Source of the DNA: Escherichia coli
Lineage (GTDB): Bacteria > Pseudomonadota > Gammaproteobacteria > Enterobacterales > Enterobacteriaceae
Length of the DNA stretch: 64,000 nucleotides
NCBI RefSeq assembly: GCF_048403405.1
Contig: NZ_CP183129.1
Reading direction: 5' to 3' (one strand)
Shown here: positions 5,978 to 12,462 of the stretch, piece after piece
Position numbering within the stretch: the stretch's first letter is position 1
Layout of the letters: the number at the start of each line of letters is the position of its first letter
Notes under the pieces: generated by a model
Database searches by the model: none
Seen by the model: only the letters and a program-made list of their open reading frames with translations
Told to the model about the DNA's origin: nothing
Program-made: the position numbers and the translations under genes

Positions 5978-6871
<894 letters not shown>

Positions 6872-6910
6872 TTACCTCATCAATCGCTTGTAGTTATATG
6901 TTGTGTTGTG

Positions 6911-6950
6911 AACATCTATCCATTTAGACGTCCAGATGTAAAGATGAAGG
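6911..6950 (-). promoter_or_regulatory. metF operator: tandem MetJ met boxes (aacatcta / agacgtcc / agatgtaa / agatgaag)
   Basis: Tandem 8-bp repeats close to the AGACGTCT consensus about 40-80 bp upstream of metF start. Confidence 0.7.
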
Positions 6951-7140
6951 AAAAGCCGAGGGGCGTCAACCGAAAAATGACCAATGATGGTGAGGAAAAA
7001 TCAGGGAAGTTGAAAAAAACTCATCTTAATTAGAGGCGATAAAAGATTTCTCTATAGCGCAATCCACCTCGCACGTTTTGACTGATATTCTGACAACACA
7101 GCGACACCTGGGCTTATTCGAAAAACAACGTCCTGCCACC

Positions 7141-7200
7141 GGATGGTGATGCTAAGGCATCTGATTCGGCCTGCGCCCTCGCGTAGGCCGAATACTGGAT
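7141..7200. repeat. REP-like palindromic unit (attcggcct-gcgccctcgcgt-aggccgaat)
   Basis: 9 bp perfect inverted repeat, GC-rich, intergenic. Confidence 0.4.
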
Positions 7201-7249
7201 CTGCAAAATCAACTGGTAACAAACAGATGAATCAACTCAATACGTACTT

Positions 7250-8803
7250 TTACTTGATATCTTTCACGCGCATACCGTTGATCTGTTCATCCGTGATGGT
7301 GTTACCCGCTTTGAAGTAATCAACCACGGCGTGATAAACGTAATAACCGCCCGTTGTGTTACGCGCTTTCCCTTCGGTAAAGGCGGTAAAACCATCTCCA
7401 CCATCAGCAAGGAAACTCTGAGTAGCAATGTGGTAAATCGTCGCATCTTCAATGGGTTTGCCATTCAGAGTCAGCGTGATTACCCGCTGACCAACCGGCT
7501 TACTGCTGTCGTACTTCATTTCCAGGCCTTTCGATACCTGTAAAACGCCATTACTTAAACTTGCGCCGTGTTCCATCAAACTGCGTAATTGTTTACCCGT
7601 GAGATCCATCGTCACCAGTTCGTTGGGAAACGGGAAGGTACTGATGACGCCGCCCATCGTAATCGCCCCTGCGGGGATCTCATTGCGAATGCCGCCAGAG
7701 TTGGTTAACGCCAATTGGGTGTTTTTACCCGCCGCTACCAGTAAAGCATCAGCCGCCAGGTTCCCGAGGGAAGCCGATTCACCATAGGCACGTTTTAATT
7801 CAACCGGCGATTTCGCGACCGTTTGTTGCACCACTTCATCAAGCTTTTTATTCCAGCCGTCGATCACCTGTTTTGTTTGCGGATCGGGCTTCCACTCGTC
7901 GGCGTAAATGGTTTTAAGCTCGAAGTTTTTCACCGTAAAATCATGCGGCTTCTCTTTGTAGTCGAGAACCAGTTTGCCCACATCAATCCCGCCGCTGTCA
8001 GTGGAGAGGATGAGCGTATTGCCGACTTTAATCGGTTCCGGCGTACCCACATGCGCATGTCCGGTGATCAAAATATCCAGCCCTTTCACCTGACTTGCCG
8101 TCTGAATATCTTTATCCAGCGCGCGACGCACATCTGTGCCTCCCATACTGGACTGGCGGGCCGGAACACCTTCATGGATCAGGGCGACGGTCAAATCAAC
8201 CTTGCCTTTAAGTTCATCGATATAACGTTGTAGCCATTTAATTTCATCACGCGCTTCAATCCCCACTCGCGTTGCCGCAGATACCGTGTCATTAAAGGCA
8301 AATACACCGTGCAAACCTATAACGCCTATTTTCACGCCGTCTTTTTCGATGATGGTATATGGCTTATCCCAGAATGATTTACTGCTGTTCTGATAAAAAA
8401 CATTGCCCTGCACAATAGGGAATTTTGCCTGACTCAACTGTAATAATGTGTTGTCCCAGCCGTGGTCAAATTCATGGTTGCCTATCGTGACGGCATCAAA
8501 CGGCATAGTATTCATAATATCGATAATAGCCTTACCTTTGGTCAGGCTGCTGATATATGGCCCGGTAAAATAATCACCCGCATCAAAAAACCATGTCGCT
8601 TTATTTTTTGCTTTTTCTTGCTTAACCAGCGTAGTGATATTTGCCCAGCCGCCAATATCCCGTTTACCATCAGCGATCCACGGCACTTTATAAGGCTCGA
8701 CATGCGCATGGAGGTCGTTGGTATAAATGATGGTGACATCTTTGGCGCAAGCCCAAAACGGCAGTGTTAATGCGATACCCGCAGCAAGTATTTTAATTTT
8801 CAT
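7250..8803 (-). CDS. periplasmic bifunctional metallophosphatase/5'-nucleotidase (UshA/YfkN family)
   Basis: 517 aa; signal peptide [20 protein letters not shown]; calcineurin-like motifs NDLHAH, GDYFTG, GNHEFD, GHAH; C-terminal 5'-nucleotidase-like region; RBS aaggga. Confidence 0.8.
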
Positions 8804-8935
8804 AAACAGTCCCTTTCAGTGAGATAAAGGATTGCTACATTACGTTCTGAAAGAGTTATTTATGTGAGAGTAATCACATCCACAGGGGAGCGTTGCCGGA
8901 CAAAATCAACGACCATGTGAAATCGTTGGTGATAT

Positions 8936-10066
8936 ATGTCGACTCTGTTTACGATTAATGCCTGCAAGTCGTTTGGTTGCCGTAATTTAGGGCAGCCAAC
9001 ATCTAAAGATTATAGCTGGCCCGACTATCGGCTGGGTTATCCGGCATTGCACTGTCGGGCATGTGGCAGTTACCCGCCGTTGTTTGACGAGCAACAATTT
9101 CGTGACTGGTTGTCAGTTCACTTATCTACTTTTGCAACAGAGAAAGGCCATTTTTGCCCGGTATGTTATGGCACAAAGACGATTTGTTATGGCCACAATC
9201 CACAGGGGTCGCAACGCATTCAATGTCGTAACTGCAAAAAAGTCTGGACACCTAAACAATATCAGAAAGAAATAACGCCTCCTGAAATAATCGAAACGGT
9301 TGCTCTTCTGGTGCCATTTCAGGGAGCCAGCAATGGGCAGAAACTGTATGTTTTAATCAGTTTTGATGCTCTTCGCGGTAATATTCTTCATCTTTCTACT
9401 AATTACACGCAGCATCAGGCTGGAGAAAGTCTGCATTATCGATACAGAGGGAATGCAGAACCAGAGTTACACGAGAGTAATATTGTACAACGCGTTGATA
9501 TGCGCGAAGCACAATTTCTACGCCGCAGTCAGTTTGATGAAATTCAGTATGGCAGCGCAGCGCTCAAACGCAATGCTAAAGGTGTTATTCTGCGTCCGGT
9601 TATCACTGCACACGGGCATTTCAGAGTACTGAATATTTTATTCCCTACAGTAAAAACACATGTAATTTCACACGAGTGTTTTTTAAGAGGTGCGATTATT
9701 ACGGCCTGGGCAGAACTGTTTCGCCAACAGCAAGGTGAGATTTGGTTTATTGAAGAGGAAATAGCTGACTATACCGATAATACGCCCTGGCGTTTTCAGG
9801 GAAAAACTTATCACGGCTGGTGGAAAAATCAGTGGCAACTCTGGGTTCAGGGCAAAAATCGTAAAATGGTATGTGCATTAACGGGCGGAAATATCAGCAA
9901 AGCTGAAATGCTCTCTTTAGCAACCAGCAGACATTTTATCGACTGGCTACATAAACAAGCAGTATTTACTCACAGCGCCCCGCTTTCCGCAGGGCGCGTT
10001 ACGCAAATACTGCTTTCTCTGGCTCAGGATTACAACAACTGCGCCAGGCGGTTAATATCCGACTGA
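8936..10066 (+). CDS. hypothetical Cys-rich protein with N-terminal zinc-ribbon motifs (CxxC...CxxC), function unknown
   Basis: 376 aa ORF; CRACGS, CPVCYG-x19-CRNCKK reminiscent of IS1/IS1595 transposase zinc ribbons; 3' end overlaps the metL 3' end convergently. Confidence 0.5.
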   Translation: MSTLFTINACKSFGCRNLGQPTSKDYSWPDYRLGYPALHCRACGSYPPLFDEQQFRDWLSVHLSTFATEKGHFCPVCYGTKTICYGHNPQGSQRIQCRNCKKVWTPKQYQKEITPPEIIETVALLVPFQGASNGQKLYVLISFDALRGNILHLSTNYTQHQAGESLHYRYRGNAEPELHESNIVQRVDMREAQFLRRSQFDEIQYGSAALKRNAKGVILRPVITAHGHFRVLNILFPTVKTHVISHECFLRGAIITAWAELFRQQQGEIWFIEEEIADYTDNTPWRFQGKTYHGWWKNQWQLWVQGKNRKMVCALTGGNISKAEMLSLATSRHFIDWLHKQAVFTHSAPLSAGRVTQILLSLAQDYNNCARRLISD

Positions 10067-12462
10067 ATCGCCCCTGCGGTGACGTCGCGCCCCGCGCCAG
10101 GCCCACGGATCACCAGAGGGTTATCGCGATACCAGCGGCTTTCGATGGCAAAGACGTTATCGCACGGCAGCAGTGATGCCAGCGGATGGTCTTCACGCAC
10201 CGCTTCCACGCCCACACGCGCTTTGCCATTGGCATCGAAACGCGCCACGTAGCGCAGCACCAGCCCCATTTCGCGGGCCGCTTCCAGCCGTTGCACCATC
10301 TGCTCGTTAAGTTCATCGCCGTTTTCAAAGAAATGGTCGATGCTACCACCTTCGCAATGGGCAGGCACCAGCGATTCCACGCGCACCTGATCTGGTTCGA
10401 TGTCGTAACCCGCTTCACGCGCCAGAATCACCAGCTTGCGCATCACGTCTTTGCCGGAAAGGTCATCACGCGGATCAGGCTCGGTTAAGCCCTGCTGCCA
10501 CGCCTGATCCACCAGCTCGGTAAACGGCACGCTACCGTCGAATTGCAGGAACAGCCAGGAGAGCGTGCCGGAGAAGATCCCACTGATCGACAAAATAGTA
10601 TCGCCGCTGTCGATCAGATCGCGCACGGTATGGTTGATCGGCAAGCCCGCACCGACGGTGGCGTTGTACAGCCAGTGACGCCCGGTTTTTTCGAAGGCGT
10701 CGTGGATCTGGCGATATTTATTGCTGTCGCTGGCTCCCGCCAGTTTGTTGGCGCTGATGACGTGGAAACCGTGGCTGGCAAAATCGAGATACTGATCAGC
10801 AAGCTGCTGGCTGGCGGTAACGTCCAACACCACTAAATCATCATACGGATGGGCGCGCATCCACAGGAACAGCGACTCTTCATCCTGCTCGACCGCTTCA
10901 TCGTTGAAGAAGGCTAACGCGCGGCTGGCGTCCAGCCCGTCATAACTCAACAGGCTACGGCGGCTGTCCACCACGCCTGCCAGCACAAATTCAAAGCCGG
11001 TACGCGCCGAGAGCGTGCTCTGCTCACGGGCGAACAGTTCCAGCCAGCGGGAACCGATATTGCCCTTGCCGAACAATACCAGGCCGATGCGTTTTTCTGC
11101 GCGGAAGACGGACTGATGCAGCCCCTGAATCAGGCTTTCGGTCGGTCCGGTGCGCAGTACTGCCACCAGGCTGATGCCGTCATCCGACTGCCAGGTAAAT
11201 TCGACCGGCTGGCCTTTCAGTTGCTGCCAGAAGCGGTGGCAATGCAGCGGGTTACGGGTTACGCCCGCCCCAACCATCGCCACCAGCGCCAGCCCCTGAC
11301 GCAGGCGCAGTTCGCCAGGTAATCCCGCTTCGTCGAGGATTTTCAGCGCACTGTCGGCCACTTCTGAGGTGTAGCAAAATTGCAGCAACTGGCGATCGTT
11401 ATGTACGCCAACCGCCAGTGGGCGCACCTGAGCACGTTTCAGGATCTGGTCGATCTCTTTATGCGCCAGTTTGAAATCCTGGCTGGTGGGCACCTGAAAC
11501 TCAATCAAGCAGACATCATCGTGGCTGGTGACAATACGCGCACCAGTACCGGAGGCCAGCACGCGTTCAATGCGCGTGGAACCTTGATCCGGCGTGTAGC
11601 TACAGCGCAGCTGCAGGTCAATTTCGCTGCCAGAAACCGGCTGTAAAGTACGGGCGTGAAGAACGGGAGCCGCCAGACGCGCCAGTTCGCTGGCCTCATC
11701 CAGACGCAGCAACGGCAGCAGGCAGGCATCTTTCACTTTACGCGGGTCGGCACTGTATACCCCGGCGACGTCGCTCCAGATGGTGACGCGAGAAACACCC
11801 GCCAGCGCACCGATTTGTGTCGCGGAATAGTCGGAACCGTTACGCCCCAGCAGCACCGTTTCACCGGCGTTGTTACGGCTGATAAACCCGGTCACCACCA
11901 GACGTTTGCCCGGATGTTGCACCAGTAGCTGTTGCAGCAACGGGTAAGAAAGCCCTTCATCAACCTGCGGTTGCGCAGCGCGTTCAGCGCGTAAAAACTC
12001 GCGGGCATCCAGCCAGGCCGCTGGCAGCCCTTGTTGATTAAGTACCGCAGACATCAGGCGCGCCGACCACACTTCGCCGTGGCCCACCACTTCCGCATAC
12101 ACCGCGTCGTTAATACCGCTGTCGAGCAGCGCCGCCAGGCGTTCCAGATCGCTGACAAAAGCGCTAATGAGGCTATCGGCTTCTTCGGCGGGTAACAGGC
12201 CGCTAATCAGATCGCACTGATAGCGACGCAGCGTTTGTTGAACCTGATGCGCAGAGAGACGATCGGTCTGGCTTAGTTTCAACCAGTTAATCAACTGGTT
12301 AGTGGTGCTACCGGCGGCGGAAACCACCATCATATCGTCAGGCTGAGAGTACTCCGCCATAATGCCCGCGACACGCAAATAACACTTCACATCAGCCAGA
12401 CTACTGCCACCAAATTTATGCAGTTGACGACCTTTCGCCCCTGCCTGCGCAATCACACTCAT
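10030..12462 (-). CDS. metL: bifunctional aspartokinase II / homoserine dehydrogenase II
   Basis: 810 aa; MSVIAQAGAKGRQLHKFGGSSLADVKCY... Confidence 0.95.
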   Translation of the reverse strand: MSVIAQAGAKGRQLHKFGGSSLADVKCYLRVAGIMAEYSQPDDMMVVSAAGSTTNQLINWLKLSQTDRLSAHQVQQTLRRYQCDLISGLLPAEEADSLISAFVSDLERLAALLDSGINDAVYAEVVGHGEVWSARLMSAVLNQQGLPAAWLDAREFLRAERAAQPQVDEGLSYPLLQQLLVQHPGKRLVVTGFISRNNAGETVLLGRNGSDYSATQIGALAGVSRVTIWSDVAGVYSADPRKVKDACLLPLLRLDEASELARLAAPVLHARTLQPVSGSEIDLQLRCSYTPDQGSTRIERVLASGTGARIVTSHDDVCLIEFQVPTSQDFKLAHKEIDQILKRAQVRPLAVGVHNDRQLLQFCYTSEVADSALKILDEAGLPGELRLRQGLALVAMVGAGVTRNPLHCHRFWQQLKGQPVEFTWQSDDGISLVAVLRTGPTESLIQGLHQSVFRAEKRIGLVLFGKGNIGSRWLELFAREQSTLSARTGFEFVLAGVVDSRRSLLSYDGLDASRALAFFNDEAVEQDEESLFLWMRAHPYDDLVVLDVTASQQLADQYLDFASHGFHVISANKLAGASDSNKYRQIHDAFEKTGRHWLYNATVGAGLPINHTVRDLIDSGDTILSISGIFSGTLSWLFLQFDGSVPFTELVDQAWQQGLTEPDPRDDLSGKDVMRKLVILAREAGYDIEPDQVRVESLVPAHCEGGSIDHFFENGDELNEQMVQRLEAAREMGLVLRYVARFDANGKARVGVEAVREDHPLASLLPCDNVFAIESRWYRDNPLVIRGPGAGRDVTAGAIQSDINRLAQLL

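Follow-up and report, generated by a model that had tools for sequence, protein, structure and literature searches.

The closest described relative of the protein considered here is the E. coli 'Nucleotidase' deposited as PDB 3IVD/3IVE, which we take to be the structural-genomics target c4898 of strain CFT073, solved with uridine and cytidine bound. It is about 98% identical over residues 19-517 (about 10 substitutions) and is essentially the same protein, an allelic variant from a strain with a longer version of the locus. The gene numbering of CFT073 fits c4898, as the tsx homologue c4894 is followed there by two nucleotidases, the partner gene described below and then the nucleotidase gene. 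In the literature, searches under the CFT073 locus tags found no functional paper on the 3IVD/3IVE protein and no enzymatic, localisation or expression data on the nucleotidase; a keyword search on the partner family returned nothing relevant.

The region itself has also been in print. A study of ExPEC/APEC genomes (PMC12928451, PLoS One 2026) lists a region 'GR 31 metL..metF', which is the same locus and in which the nucleotidase is 'ORF 431'. As far as the accessible part of that study goes, GR 31 contains a Tsx homologue and three ORFs with UshA domains, for which nucleoside/nucleotide processing together with Tsx-mediated uptake is proposed; the same part makes no mention of the zinc-ribbon partner, the CRP site or the synteny across genera in its account of GR 31. 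The 64-kb stretch of E. coli DNA analysed here (the window) differs from GR 31 in carrying a short two-gene form without Tsx and without the two extra paralogues. With an existing annotation (RefSeq WP_000694075.1, 'bifunctional metallophosphatase/5'-nucleotidase'), a solved structure and a 2026 paper on the region, the nucleotidase is already known, which makes its finding an ordinary one and overtakes its presentation as a novelty in the first-pass annotation of this DNA. By itself it matters little: it is a catalogued accessory gene with a crystal structure and a published, still putative functional proposal. We consider it reasonably probable that, as a whole, the locus is explained by a Sec-exported, soluble periplasmic 5'-nucleotidase that serves cAMP-CRP-controlled scavenging, is regulated by its partner and belongs to an old module lost from K-12.

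The nucleotidase and its family

The features of the locus, in window coordinates, are:

5978..6868, minus strand: metF
7019..10028: segment of 3010 bp absent from K-12, containing the two-gene module, from an alignment with the K-12 empty site
7165..7192, minus strand: REP-like hairpin, rich in G+C, TTCGGCCT..AGGCCGAA, beyond the stop codon of the nucleotidase gene and without a T-tail
7250..8803, minus strand: nucleotidase CDS, 517 aa, two-domain metallophosphatase/5'-nucleotidase predicted to be secreted, from the ORF and its Pfam domains
8744..8803, minus strand: part coding for the signal peptide (residues 1-20), for which cleavage by signal peptidase I is predicted before K21, from inspection of the sequence; the PDB chain matches the protein from residue 19 onward
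8936..10066, plus strand: partner CDS, 376 aa, annotated as 'cytoplasmic protein' or 'hypothetical protein'; it shares its final 37 nt with the 3' end of metL
9957..10015, minus strand: strong hairpin with TTGTTTAT after it, shortly past the metL stop codon; the 85-nt stretch folds at about -41 kcal/mol
10030..12462, minus strand: metL

The hairpin at 9957..10015 is likely the metBL terminator, which would lie within the 3' coding end of the partner on the other strand.

The nucleotidase ORF is real and, as the first-pass annotation had it, 517 aa long and opposite in strand to the zinc-ribbon ORF. It lies between metF and metL, starts with ATG downstream of an AAGGGA Shine-Dalgarno sequence and diverges head-to-head from the 376-aa partner. 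The same annotation had proposed a profile search for two domains, and both are found: Metallophos (PF00149) at residues 24-252 (E 4e-12) and 5_nucleotid_C (PF02872) at residues 335-477 (E 1e-38). All metallophosphatase motifs (DxH, GD, GNHE(x)D, H and GHxH) are present in the N-terminal domain. It had also named two observations that would speak against it, the same gene at the K-12 locus and a lack of these motifs; both were looked for and neither was found.

Its claim of a signal peptide agrees with inspection of the sequence, by which the N-terminus has a charged n-region, then a hydrophobic core, and an AxA cleavage motif followed by KD. Paralogues and orthologues have VLA|QD, VMA|QD, VFA|QD or ALA|KD at this position, and Cys19 is not conserved in them. 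The AxA motifs of the relatives together with the unconserved Cys19 indicate a signal of the signal peptidase I type rather than a lipoprotein signal. Lipoprotein anchoring via Cys19 was considered and rejected, as the Trp at position -2 is also unfit for a lipobox. The mature protein (computed as about 497 aa, 54 kDa, pI 6.2) would accordingly be located in the periplasm.

Among solved structures outside E. coli, the best matches are the Thermus thermophilus 5'-nucleotidase (2Z1A, E 2.5e-46) and CD73 (E about 1e-32), which align over nearly the full length and are nevertheless remote in sequence; UshA follows at E 2e-23. CD73 itself is GPI-anchored, dimeric and AMP-specific. E. coli UshA shares the two-domain architecture, the metal-binding and catalytic residues and, by prediction for the nucleotidase, the periplasmic targeting. 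In the alignment, D30/H32, D77 and N109/H110/D113 of the nucleotidase correspond to UshA D41/H43, D84 and N116/H117/D120, and H210 and H249/H251 to H217 and H252/Q254, so that UshA has GHSQ where the nucleotidase has GHAH; insertions of UshA are missing from the nucleotidase. In the C-terminal domain, R373, F392 and F464 align with UshA R410, F429 and F498, the base-stacking Phe pair and an Arg. The metal-binding and catalytic residues and the equivalents of R410/F429/F498 are kept in the nucleotidase, its two E. coli paralogues and the orthologues from Cronobacter and Vibrio. The term 'UshA-like' used in the first-pass annotation therefore holds at the level of the superfamily and no further: identity to K-12 UshA is 24%, the UshA equivalog model NF007109 (NCBIfam) gives 152 bits against a cutoff of 600, and 2Z1A and CD73 are the stronger matches. 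On the other hand, the gene was rightly described as a second enzyme besides ushA. The latter is a core gene, present in its own right in 5418 of the 5426 complete E. coli genomes, so the nucleotidase, an accessory gene (34%), is an additional enzyme.

Since the solved relatives outside E. coli are only modestly similar, the substrate range can be assigned at the level of the family. It is conceivable, though unlikely, that the same fold has another main substrate, such as NAD, UDP-sugars, 2',3'-cyclic or 3'-nucleotides, or cyclic or linear dinucleotides, and works as a NadN-, CpdB- or UshA-like or a signal-degrading enzyme. The superfamily is promiscuous, and the three paralogues of the longer island suggest divided substrate specificities. 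Comparable sub-threshold scores are obtained with NCBIfam models for UshA, multifunctional (CpdB-type) cyclic-nucleotide phosphodiesterase/nucleotidase (NF006938, 101.6 bits against 486), NadN (134 against 436) and SoxB (153 against 550), all of which, however, stay far under their curated cutoffs. The positions of UshA R375 and R379 are occupied by L336 and Y340 and thus not by arginines; this may reflect a shift in the alignment, as R338 is invariant among the E. coli paralogues. Two points speak against another main substrate: the Phe pair that clamps the nucleoside is kept, as is the R410 equivalent, and the linked genes encode nucleoside channels, transporters and phosphorylases rather than signalling or defence functions. 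PADLOC-DB holds no family that matches the nucleotidase or the partner at E <= 0.01. The earlier suggestion that the enzyme might degrade a nucleotide signal is thus not supported, its genomic associations speaking rather for the catabolism and uptake of nucleosides.

Distribution and ancestry of the two-gene module

In K-12, the gap between metF and metL had been put at a few hundred bp without a nucleotidase, and this is the case: it spans 348 bp in strain ER3413 and holds no such gene, compared with 3161 bp in the window. In place of 7019..10028, K-12 has 197 unrelated bp that contain a REP element. We considered this filler as a remnant of the module and rejected the idea, as it has no homology to the module and includes a REP-like element shared with other REP copies; by its sequence, it is not a simple deletion scar. 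Scored as present where at least 80% of 6800-10100 was found, the module occurs in 1837 of 5426 complete E. coli genomes, about a third, with a median of one place per genome and always at the metL-metF locus.

Outside E. coli, at least 20 more species of Enterobacteriaceae have the same gene pair between metL and metF. A genome scan with a 6-sequence alignment, which is biased towards this family, returned 37 loci, and the arrangement metL-partner-nucleotidase-metF occurs, among others, in Citrobacter, Klebsiella, Kosakonia, Phytobacter and Salmonella arizonae. In those species the nucleotidase is 87-91% identical to that of E. coli, compared with 90-95% for MetL. This occurrence at one site, at a divergence slightly above that of the flanking core genes, suggests that K-12-type strains most likely lost the pair. 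The module is thus probably ancestral at the metL-metF site and K-12 the derived state, and the word 'inserted' in the first-pass annotation probably has the polarity wrong.

A longer version of the locus exists. In 659 E. coli genomes, a Tsx-like nucleoside channel is encoded in the metL-metF interval as well, along with two further paralogues of the nucleotidase (56% and 69% identical to it), and versions with a Tsx-like channel and several nucleotidases occur elsewhere in Enterobacter, in Citrobacter and at a second E. coli locus. We asked whether the partner allele of the B2 long island was imported with the Tsx block from an Enterobacter/Citrobacter-type island. This is not supported: the B2 allele is 65-69% identical to the partners of that type, compared with 78% to the short-form allele.

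The long island is found in B2 ExPEC/AIEC (LF82, ATCC 25922, EV36; CFT073 carries the tsx homologue of the island) and the short two-gene form in ST131, a distribution that would suit a factor of host interaction. Such an enzyme would convert extracellular AMP/ATP of the host to immunosuppressive adenosine during extraintestinal infection, as CD73 and the Gram-positive adenosine synthases AdsA and S5nA do. CD73 and snake-venom 5'-nucleotidases rank above UshA in the PDB search, and in TosR transcriptome data the tsx homologue of the island, c4894, responds to this UPEC regulator. Yet environmental and commensal Enterobacteriaceae, among them Kosakonia, Phytobacter, Citrobacter and Klebsiella, have the module at this locus too, and the enzyme has a plain predicted signal peptidase I signal without a surface anchor, so that substrates must cross the outer membrane first. 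Nutrition is the role suggested by the CRP-type site and by the ties to nucleoside catabolism, and we regard a role in host interaction as improbable. Read as a scavenging enzyme, the nucleotidase would be a sound example of strain-variable nutrient acquisition, with about a third of E. coli having extra periplasmic nucleotidases.

The zinc-ribbon partner

Of 35 informative species loci, 34 have the partner head-to-head with the nucleotidase gene. The partner protein contains two zinc ribbons (C10/C15..C40/C43 and C74/C77..C97/C100), then a predicted RNase H-like (DDE-type) domain and a C-terminal helical bundle. When the partner family alignment (A4) was compared with IS1 InsAB' by hhalign, the zinc ribbon was matched with a probability of 96% (E 5e-9), and Pfam Zn_ribbon_InsA is found in 8 of 59 family members at E <= 1e-3. 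For the partner of the window alone, the match to the InsA zinc ribbon (NCBIfam) is weak, 21.3 bits against a cutoff of 28. IS1 InsA is itself a DNA-binding repressor. The RNase H-like fold predicted for the partner would fit a nuclease equally well.

The partner thus shares with IS1 InsA/InsAB' a homologous zinc ribbon and, by prediction, the RNase H-like domain of DDE type downstream of it. In contrast to IS1, the module is single-copy, lacks inverted repeats and is syntenic across genera, and the E. coli partner lacks the HTH-like insert common to InsA and the longer family members. Pfam and hhalign matches leave the catalytic part uncovered, and none is found to the IS1 catalytic domain. 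Together, these points argue that the partner is not an insertion sequence. Accordingly, we have rejected, as very improbable, the idea that the partner is an active IS1-like transposase with the nucleotidase as cargo recently inserted at metL-metF: its InsA-type zinc ribbon and DDE-transposase-like predicted fold, the name 'IS1 family transposase' among its database names, the G+C content of the module (46%, below metL with 59% and metF with 53%) and the occurrence of the pair in more than one genomic context would fit, but the module has a median of one place per genome, no flanking terminal inverted or direct repeats and a near-vertical divergence across genera, an acidic residue is found at the candidate positions D144 and D201 of the partner in no more than 75% and 86% of the family, and distant relatives lie inside nucleoside operons and not in IS-like units.

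Most likely, the partner is instead a DNA-binding protein that derives from a transposase and regulates the module. Its family is small and comprises 214 clusters among 1.84 billion representative proteins. Of the distant relatives, six of the seven with a readable context adjoin nucleoside-related genes (5'-nucleotidase, PNP/DeoD, DeoB-like, NupC, NupG-like, adenosine deaminase). More tentatively, the whole family may have been domesticated from an IS1-like transposase as dedicated regulators or sensors of genes for the scavenging of nucleosides and nucleotides in Enterobacterales and Vibrionales, with the nucleotidase as the conserved divergent target in a CRP-dependent module distinct from CytR; we hold this broader view to be possible, with the odds somewhat against it. 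The consistent neighbourhood of the sampled relatives with nucleoside-catabolic genes, the probable derived state of K-12 and the tie of the nucleotidase across genera to a fast-evolving, transposase-like zinc-ribbon protein are the more useful side results of this analysis.

The shared control region and its likeness to the CRP/CytR regulon

Nucleotidase and partner genes are separated by a short region with the following elements:

8804..8935: divergent control region, 132 bp between the two genes, with several blocks kept in about 35 species
8840..8853: block TTACGTTCTGAAAG, almost without variation; its minus-strand reading has the -10-like hexamer CGTAAT, with the midpoint of the CRP site about 30 nt away
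8863..8878: CRP-type palindrome TGTGAGAGTAATCACA, its midpoint lying about 67 nt from the nucleotidase ATG and about 66 nt from the partner ATG, upstream of both
8899..8929, plus strand: conserved block GACAAAATCAACGACC-N8-AAATCGTTGG with the inverted repeat CAACGA/TCGTTG just upstream of the partner start codon

The 64-kb window has no other perfect TGTGA-N6-TCACA besides this palindrome; 0.08 would be expected. Among 36 sequences (the window and 35 loci), 26 have perfect half-sites at this position and 9 depart from them by one mismatch, so that 35 of 36 carry the site with at most one mismatch; the 6-nt spacer varies freely. The spacing of CGTAAT corresponds to a class II geometry and would mark a candidate nucleotidase promoter. 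A simple scan for sigma-70 promoters turned up no strong one. The inverted repeat at 8899..8929 could be an operator or a hairpin in the 5'-UTR.

These findings suggest the following course of events. After export, the N-terminal calcineurin-like domain would hold a two-metal centre and the C-terminal domain would clamp the base of the nucleotide between two phenylalanines, as expected for the family. Hydrolysis in the periplasm would yield nucleoside and phosphate, and the nucleoside could be imported by inner-membrane nucleoside transporters; these substrates and the control by CRP are both putative. Nucleotidase and partner would be transcribed divergently from the shared region, and the conserved CRP-type site within it suggests that cAMP-CRP probably turns on nucleotidase expression when good carbon sources run short, in a manner presumed similar to that of the classical nucleoside-catabolic genes. 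The partner, predicted to be cytoplasmic with its IS1 InsA-like zinc ribbon and RNase H-like fold, would act as regulator of the module. The module would be an old resident of the metL-metF interval of Enterobacteriaceae, kept in about one third of E. coli and, in classical B2 ExPEC, presumably extended by the Tsx-like outer-membrane channel and the two nucleotidase paralogues.

If the partner is indeed a regulator domesticated from a transposase, it would represent a new type of regulator in a classical regulon and a clean bacterial case of transposase domestication. The likeness to the cAMP-CRP/CytR regulon (tsx, deo, udp, cdd, nupC, nupG) is one of working and not of membership. As in that regulon, a nucleoside-related gene has a CRP-type site upstream, and the module is linked to Tsx, NupC, NupG and DeoD-type genes. 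Nucleoside genes regulated by CytR and CRP typically have tandem CRP sites. Unlike them, the module has just one such site, and it shows no recognisable CytR operator; in place of CytR, it has a dedicated, unrelated partner protein.

The nucleotidase gene and its product

The interval between metF and metL in the window is occupied by two head-to-head genes, coding for a 517-aa nucleotidase and a 376-aa zinc-ribbon protein (here referred to as the partner; both genes together, the module):
5978..6868, minus strand: metF, flanking the nucleotidase gene
7250..8803, minus strand: nucleotidase gene, 517 aa, ATG start, AAGGGA ribosome-binding site
8936..10066, plus strand: partner gene, 376 aa
10030..12462, minus strand: metL, the other flank of the module

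The first-pass annotation had described the 517-aa ORF as an extra UshA-like 5'-nucleotidase gene, and its position and length were confirmed. Profile searches against Pfam recovered both expected domains, with Metallophos spanning residues 24-252 (E 4e-12) and 5_nucleotid_C spanning residues 335-477 (E 1e-38). In an alignment with K-12 UshA, all metal-binding and catalytic residues have equivalents: D41/H43, D84, N116/H117/D120, H217 and H252/Q254 of UshA correspond to D30/H32, D77, N109/H110/D113, H210 and H249/H251, and R410, F429 and F498 of the C-domain to R373, F392 and F464. By inspection, the N-terminus has the appearance of a signal peptide for signal peptidase I, with cleavage before KD. 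The signal peptides of relatives end in VLA, VMA or VFA before QD, or in ALA before KD, and lack a Cys, so that a lipoprotein is unlikely. The natural reading is that the protein would act as a periplasmic nucleotide phosphohydrolase, an activity predicted because the catalytic and base-clamping residues are intact; the scavenging of nucleotides proposed earlier is a reasonable guess.

The designation 'UshA-like' holds at the level of the superfamily and not beyond. The protein is 24% identical to UshA and stays far below the cutoff of every NCBIfam equivalog scored, reaching 152 versus 600 for UshA, 134 versus 436 for NadN, 153 versus 550 for SoxB and 102 versus 486 for the CpdB type; UshA orthology is thereby ruled out. 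Among solved structures in the PDB, the Thermus thermophilus enzyme and the CD73/venom 5'-nucleotidases match more strongly than UshA does. As had been proposed, the gene is additional to the canonical ushA, which belongs to the core genome (5418 of 5426 genomes). Orthologues with 87-91% identity occur in Enterobacter, Kluyvera, Citrobacter and Klebsiella, with about 70% in Cronobacter and Atlantibacter and with about 56% in Vibrio.

The gene itself is already known: it is annotated as part of the accessory genome, the structure of its product is solved and its island has been described in print. Carrier genomes list its product as 'bifunctional metallophosphatase/5'-nucleotidase' and the partner as 'hypothetical' or 'cytoplasmic protein'. 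The PDB entries 3IVD and 3IVE ('Nucleotidase') are about 98% identical to residues 19-517; we take them to be the structural-genomics target c4898 of strain CFT073, solved with uridine and cytidine. This numbering fits the gene order of the island, in which c4894 is the tsx homologue. Literature searches turned up no biochemical or genetic work on the nucleotidase. In a 2026 paper on the APEC strain BEN2908, a region 'GR 31 metL..metF' is described as common to ExPEC, containing one Tsx homologue and three ORFs with UshA domains, for which the paper proposes a role in processing and transporting nucleosides (PMC12928451).

States and history of the metL-metF interval

By megablast, at least 80% of positions 6800-10100 was found in 1837 of 5426 complete E. 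coli genomes (34%), in the chromosome at the metL-metF locus; strain GN02461 is 100% identical. Two matches fell on plasmid-labelled records, one of them the 169-kb NZ_CP170376.1 of strain 2406_w1_hybrid, which carries metL; both are probably mislabelled chromosomal contigs of hybrid assemblies. The remaining genomes (about 66%), including K-12, O157-like and many other records, show an empty state. The predicted absence from K-12 was borne out in ER3413, where a gap of 348 bp holds no such gene. There, 197 unrelated bp including a REP-like element stand in place of 7019..10028. This filler (3220-3416 of L002, the K-12 metL-metF region) has no similarity to the module, and a 44-aa hypothetical ORF (RefSeq, L002 3145-3279) overlaps its start.

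The occupied locus exists in two forms. The short form, as in the window, consists of the partner and one nucleotidase; its junction (9600-10060) was found in 1180 genomes, O25b:H4-ST131 among them. The long form, present in 659 genomes including LF82, ATCC 25922 and EV36, has the order metL, Tsx-like channel, 540-aa nucleotidase, 517-aa nucleotidase, partner, window-type nucleotidase and metF, and thus holds the channel and two extra paralogues between metL and the partner (L004, NZ_CP049839.1 56182-63372). These paralogues share 56% and 69% identity with the nucleotidase of the window. Between the two forms the window-type nucleotidase is 99% identical, whereas the partner, at 78%, is far more divergent. 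CFT073 belongs to the long form as well, judging from the tsx homologue of its island and from the description of the region in ExPEC strains. E. coli SCPM-O-B-8794 has two copies of the system (L018, L025), the short form at metL-metF and, on another contig, Tsx, three nucleotidases and a partner. Enterobacter asburiae (L024) and Citrobacter sp. wls619 (L046) likewise have blocks of Tsx and several nucleotidases that resemble the long form.

The gene had been considered an insertion between metF and metL. We scanned one genome per species for the partner family and mapped nucleotidase, partner, MetL, MetF, Tsx and AssT onto the 37 resulting loci. The order metL, partner, nucleotidase, metF recurred in many Citrobacter species; in Klebsiella pneumoniae, K. 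oxytoca and K. spallanzanii; in Kosakonia, Phytobacter and Superficieibacter; in Kluyvera and Pseudocitrobacter; in Salmonella enterica subsp. arizonae; and in Escherichia whittamii and another Escherichia species. At these syntenic loci, identities to E. coli were 87-91% for the nucleotidase, 90-95% for MetL and 93-96% for MetF, a pattern that vertical descent would give. The shared synteny and the near-flank identities therefore suggest that the module is most likely an old resident of the interval that K-12-type lineages lost, carrying the REP-containing filler instead; 'inserted' would thus probably have the polarity wrong. The module has also moved at times, as its lower G+C content (46% versus 53-59% in the flanks) and its presence at other sites show: in Enterobacter, Cronobacter, Pluralibacter and Silvania it lies next to an aryl-sulfotransferase gene.

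At loci other than metL-metF, this AssT-like periplasmic aryl-sulfotransferase gene immediately adjoins the module on either side (L005 5043-6569; L007 9615-11141; L021, L022, L024, L026, L044). For Salmonella enterica subsp. enterica, nucleotidase fragments alone were found (P0088 and P0100, serovars Typhi and Newport). They carry hypothetical-protein annotations and match roughly half of the nucleotidase at 91-94% identity, which suggests decay of the module in this subspecies. In S. arizonae the module is intact at metL-metF.

The divergent control region

The nucleotidase and partner genes are separated by 132 bp. Signals in and around the module are:
6926-6939: MetJ boxes of metF, within the part common to K-12
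8840-8853: nearly invariant block TTACGTTCTGAAAG, conserved across loci
8863-8878: CRP-type palindrome TGTGAGAGTAATCACA (TGTGA-N6-TCACA), midway between the divergent genes
8899-8929: nearly invariant block GACAAAATCAACGACC-N8-AAATCGTTGG, forming an inverted repeat directly upstream of the partner ATG
9957-10015, minus strand: strong hairpin with T-rich tail, immediately 3' of the metL stop codon

The palindrome is the sole perfect CRP core in the 64-kb window, with 0.08 expected. When the window was compared with 35 loci (n = 36), the half-sites at this position were perfect in 26 sequences and had one mismatch in 9 (at most one mismatch in 35/36), while the spacer varied freely. Functional dimer-binding sites typically show such conservation, which marks the palindrome as a candidate CRP site. 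A near-perfect site also precedes the Vibrio orthologue; the one-mismatch site upstream of the second long-island nucleotidase is within chance expectation. The spacing of TTACGTTCTGAAAG would suit a nucleotidase promoter of the class II CRP type, and both invariant blocks are candidate operator or promoter elements; a consensus promoter scan of the region gave unimpressive matches. As the MetJ boxes belong to sequence that K-12 also has, no effect on the control of metF is expected. At the other end, the partner ORF overlaps metL by 37 nt, and the hairpin, likely the metBL terminator, falls within the partner gene, near the 3' end of its coding sequence.

The partner protein and its link to nucleoside genes

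The nucleotidase was head-to-head with a partner homologue at 34 of the 35 genome-scan loci having upstream sequence, and likewise in further contexts from Enterobacter, Cronobacter and Vibrio. The loci behind this pairing across Enterobacteriaceae and Vibrio are the window, L005, L006, L007, L009 and L016-L051. We observed a much higher rate of evolution in the partner than in the nucleotidase (58-64% versus 87-91% identity between E. coli and Klebsiella/Citrobacter). In Vibrio sp. WXL103 (L009), the partner is called as 279 aa with the gene end at 7422. A tblastn match with the window protein continues to 7857, so the call is probably truncated or the gene frameshifted; the roughly 580 bp upstream (7423-8000) appear to encode the missing zinc-ribbon N-terminus.

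No Pfam domain was found in the partner, and NCBIfam and PHROGs gave nothing beyond weak zinc-ribbon matches. An exhaustive profile search placed its family at 214 clusters among 1.84 billion representatives. A confident AlphaFold2 model has an RNase H-like core of the DDE transposase/integrase type. Among the candidate acidic residues of the family, E247 is always acidic, D201 in 86% and D144 in 75%; R197, H228 and W300 are invariant. An active insertion sequence was rejected, the gene being single-copy, devoid of terminal repeats and syntenic across genera.

Distant relatives of 450-500 aa (about 20-30% identity; about 26-28% in the genome-scan mapping) were available with contig context in seven cases:
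P0250: NupC-type transporter and PNP_UDP_1 phosphorylase genes, divergently oriented
P0253: phosphopentomutase-like, phosphorylase and NupG-like genes, divergently oriented
P0287: 520-aa 5'-nucleotidase gene 51 bp upstream; gene for a NupC-type transporter at a distance of 4 kb on the opposite strand
P0290: 519-aa 5'-nucleotidase gene 25 bp upstream on the same strand
P0317: directly 3' of a DeoD-type phosphorylase
P0344: preceded by an operon of NupC and adenosine deaminase genes; a phosphorylase gene in the vicinity
P0261: no nucleoside-related neighbour within 7 kb of sequence

Nucleoside or nucleotide genes are thus neighbours in 6/7 contexts (L011/L012, L014, L015, L053, L055 and L056), a small sample without a background rate. 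Together with the Enterobacteriaceae pairs, these contexts point to a functional tie between the partner family and nucleoside/nucleotide salvage. We favour a transposase-derived DNA-binding regulator as the predicted role of the partner over a nuclease or a ligand sensor.

The likeness to IS1 lies in the zinc ribbon, which is homologous to that of InsA, whereas no sequence match was found over the catalytic domain of the partner. The partner may be worth following up: it represents a small uncharacterised family with an IS1-like zinc ribbon and a predicted RNase H-like fold, is tied to nucleoside-scavenging genes, and has a CRP-type control region in common with the nucleotidase gene.
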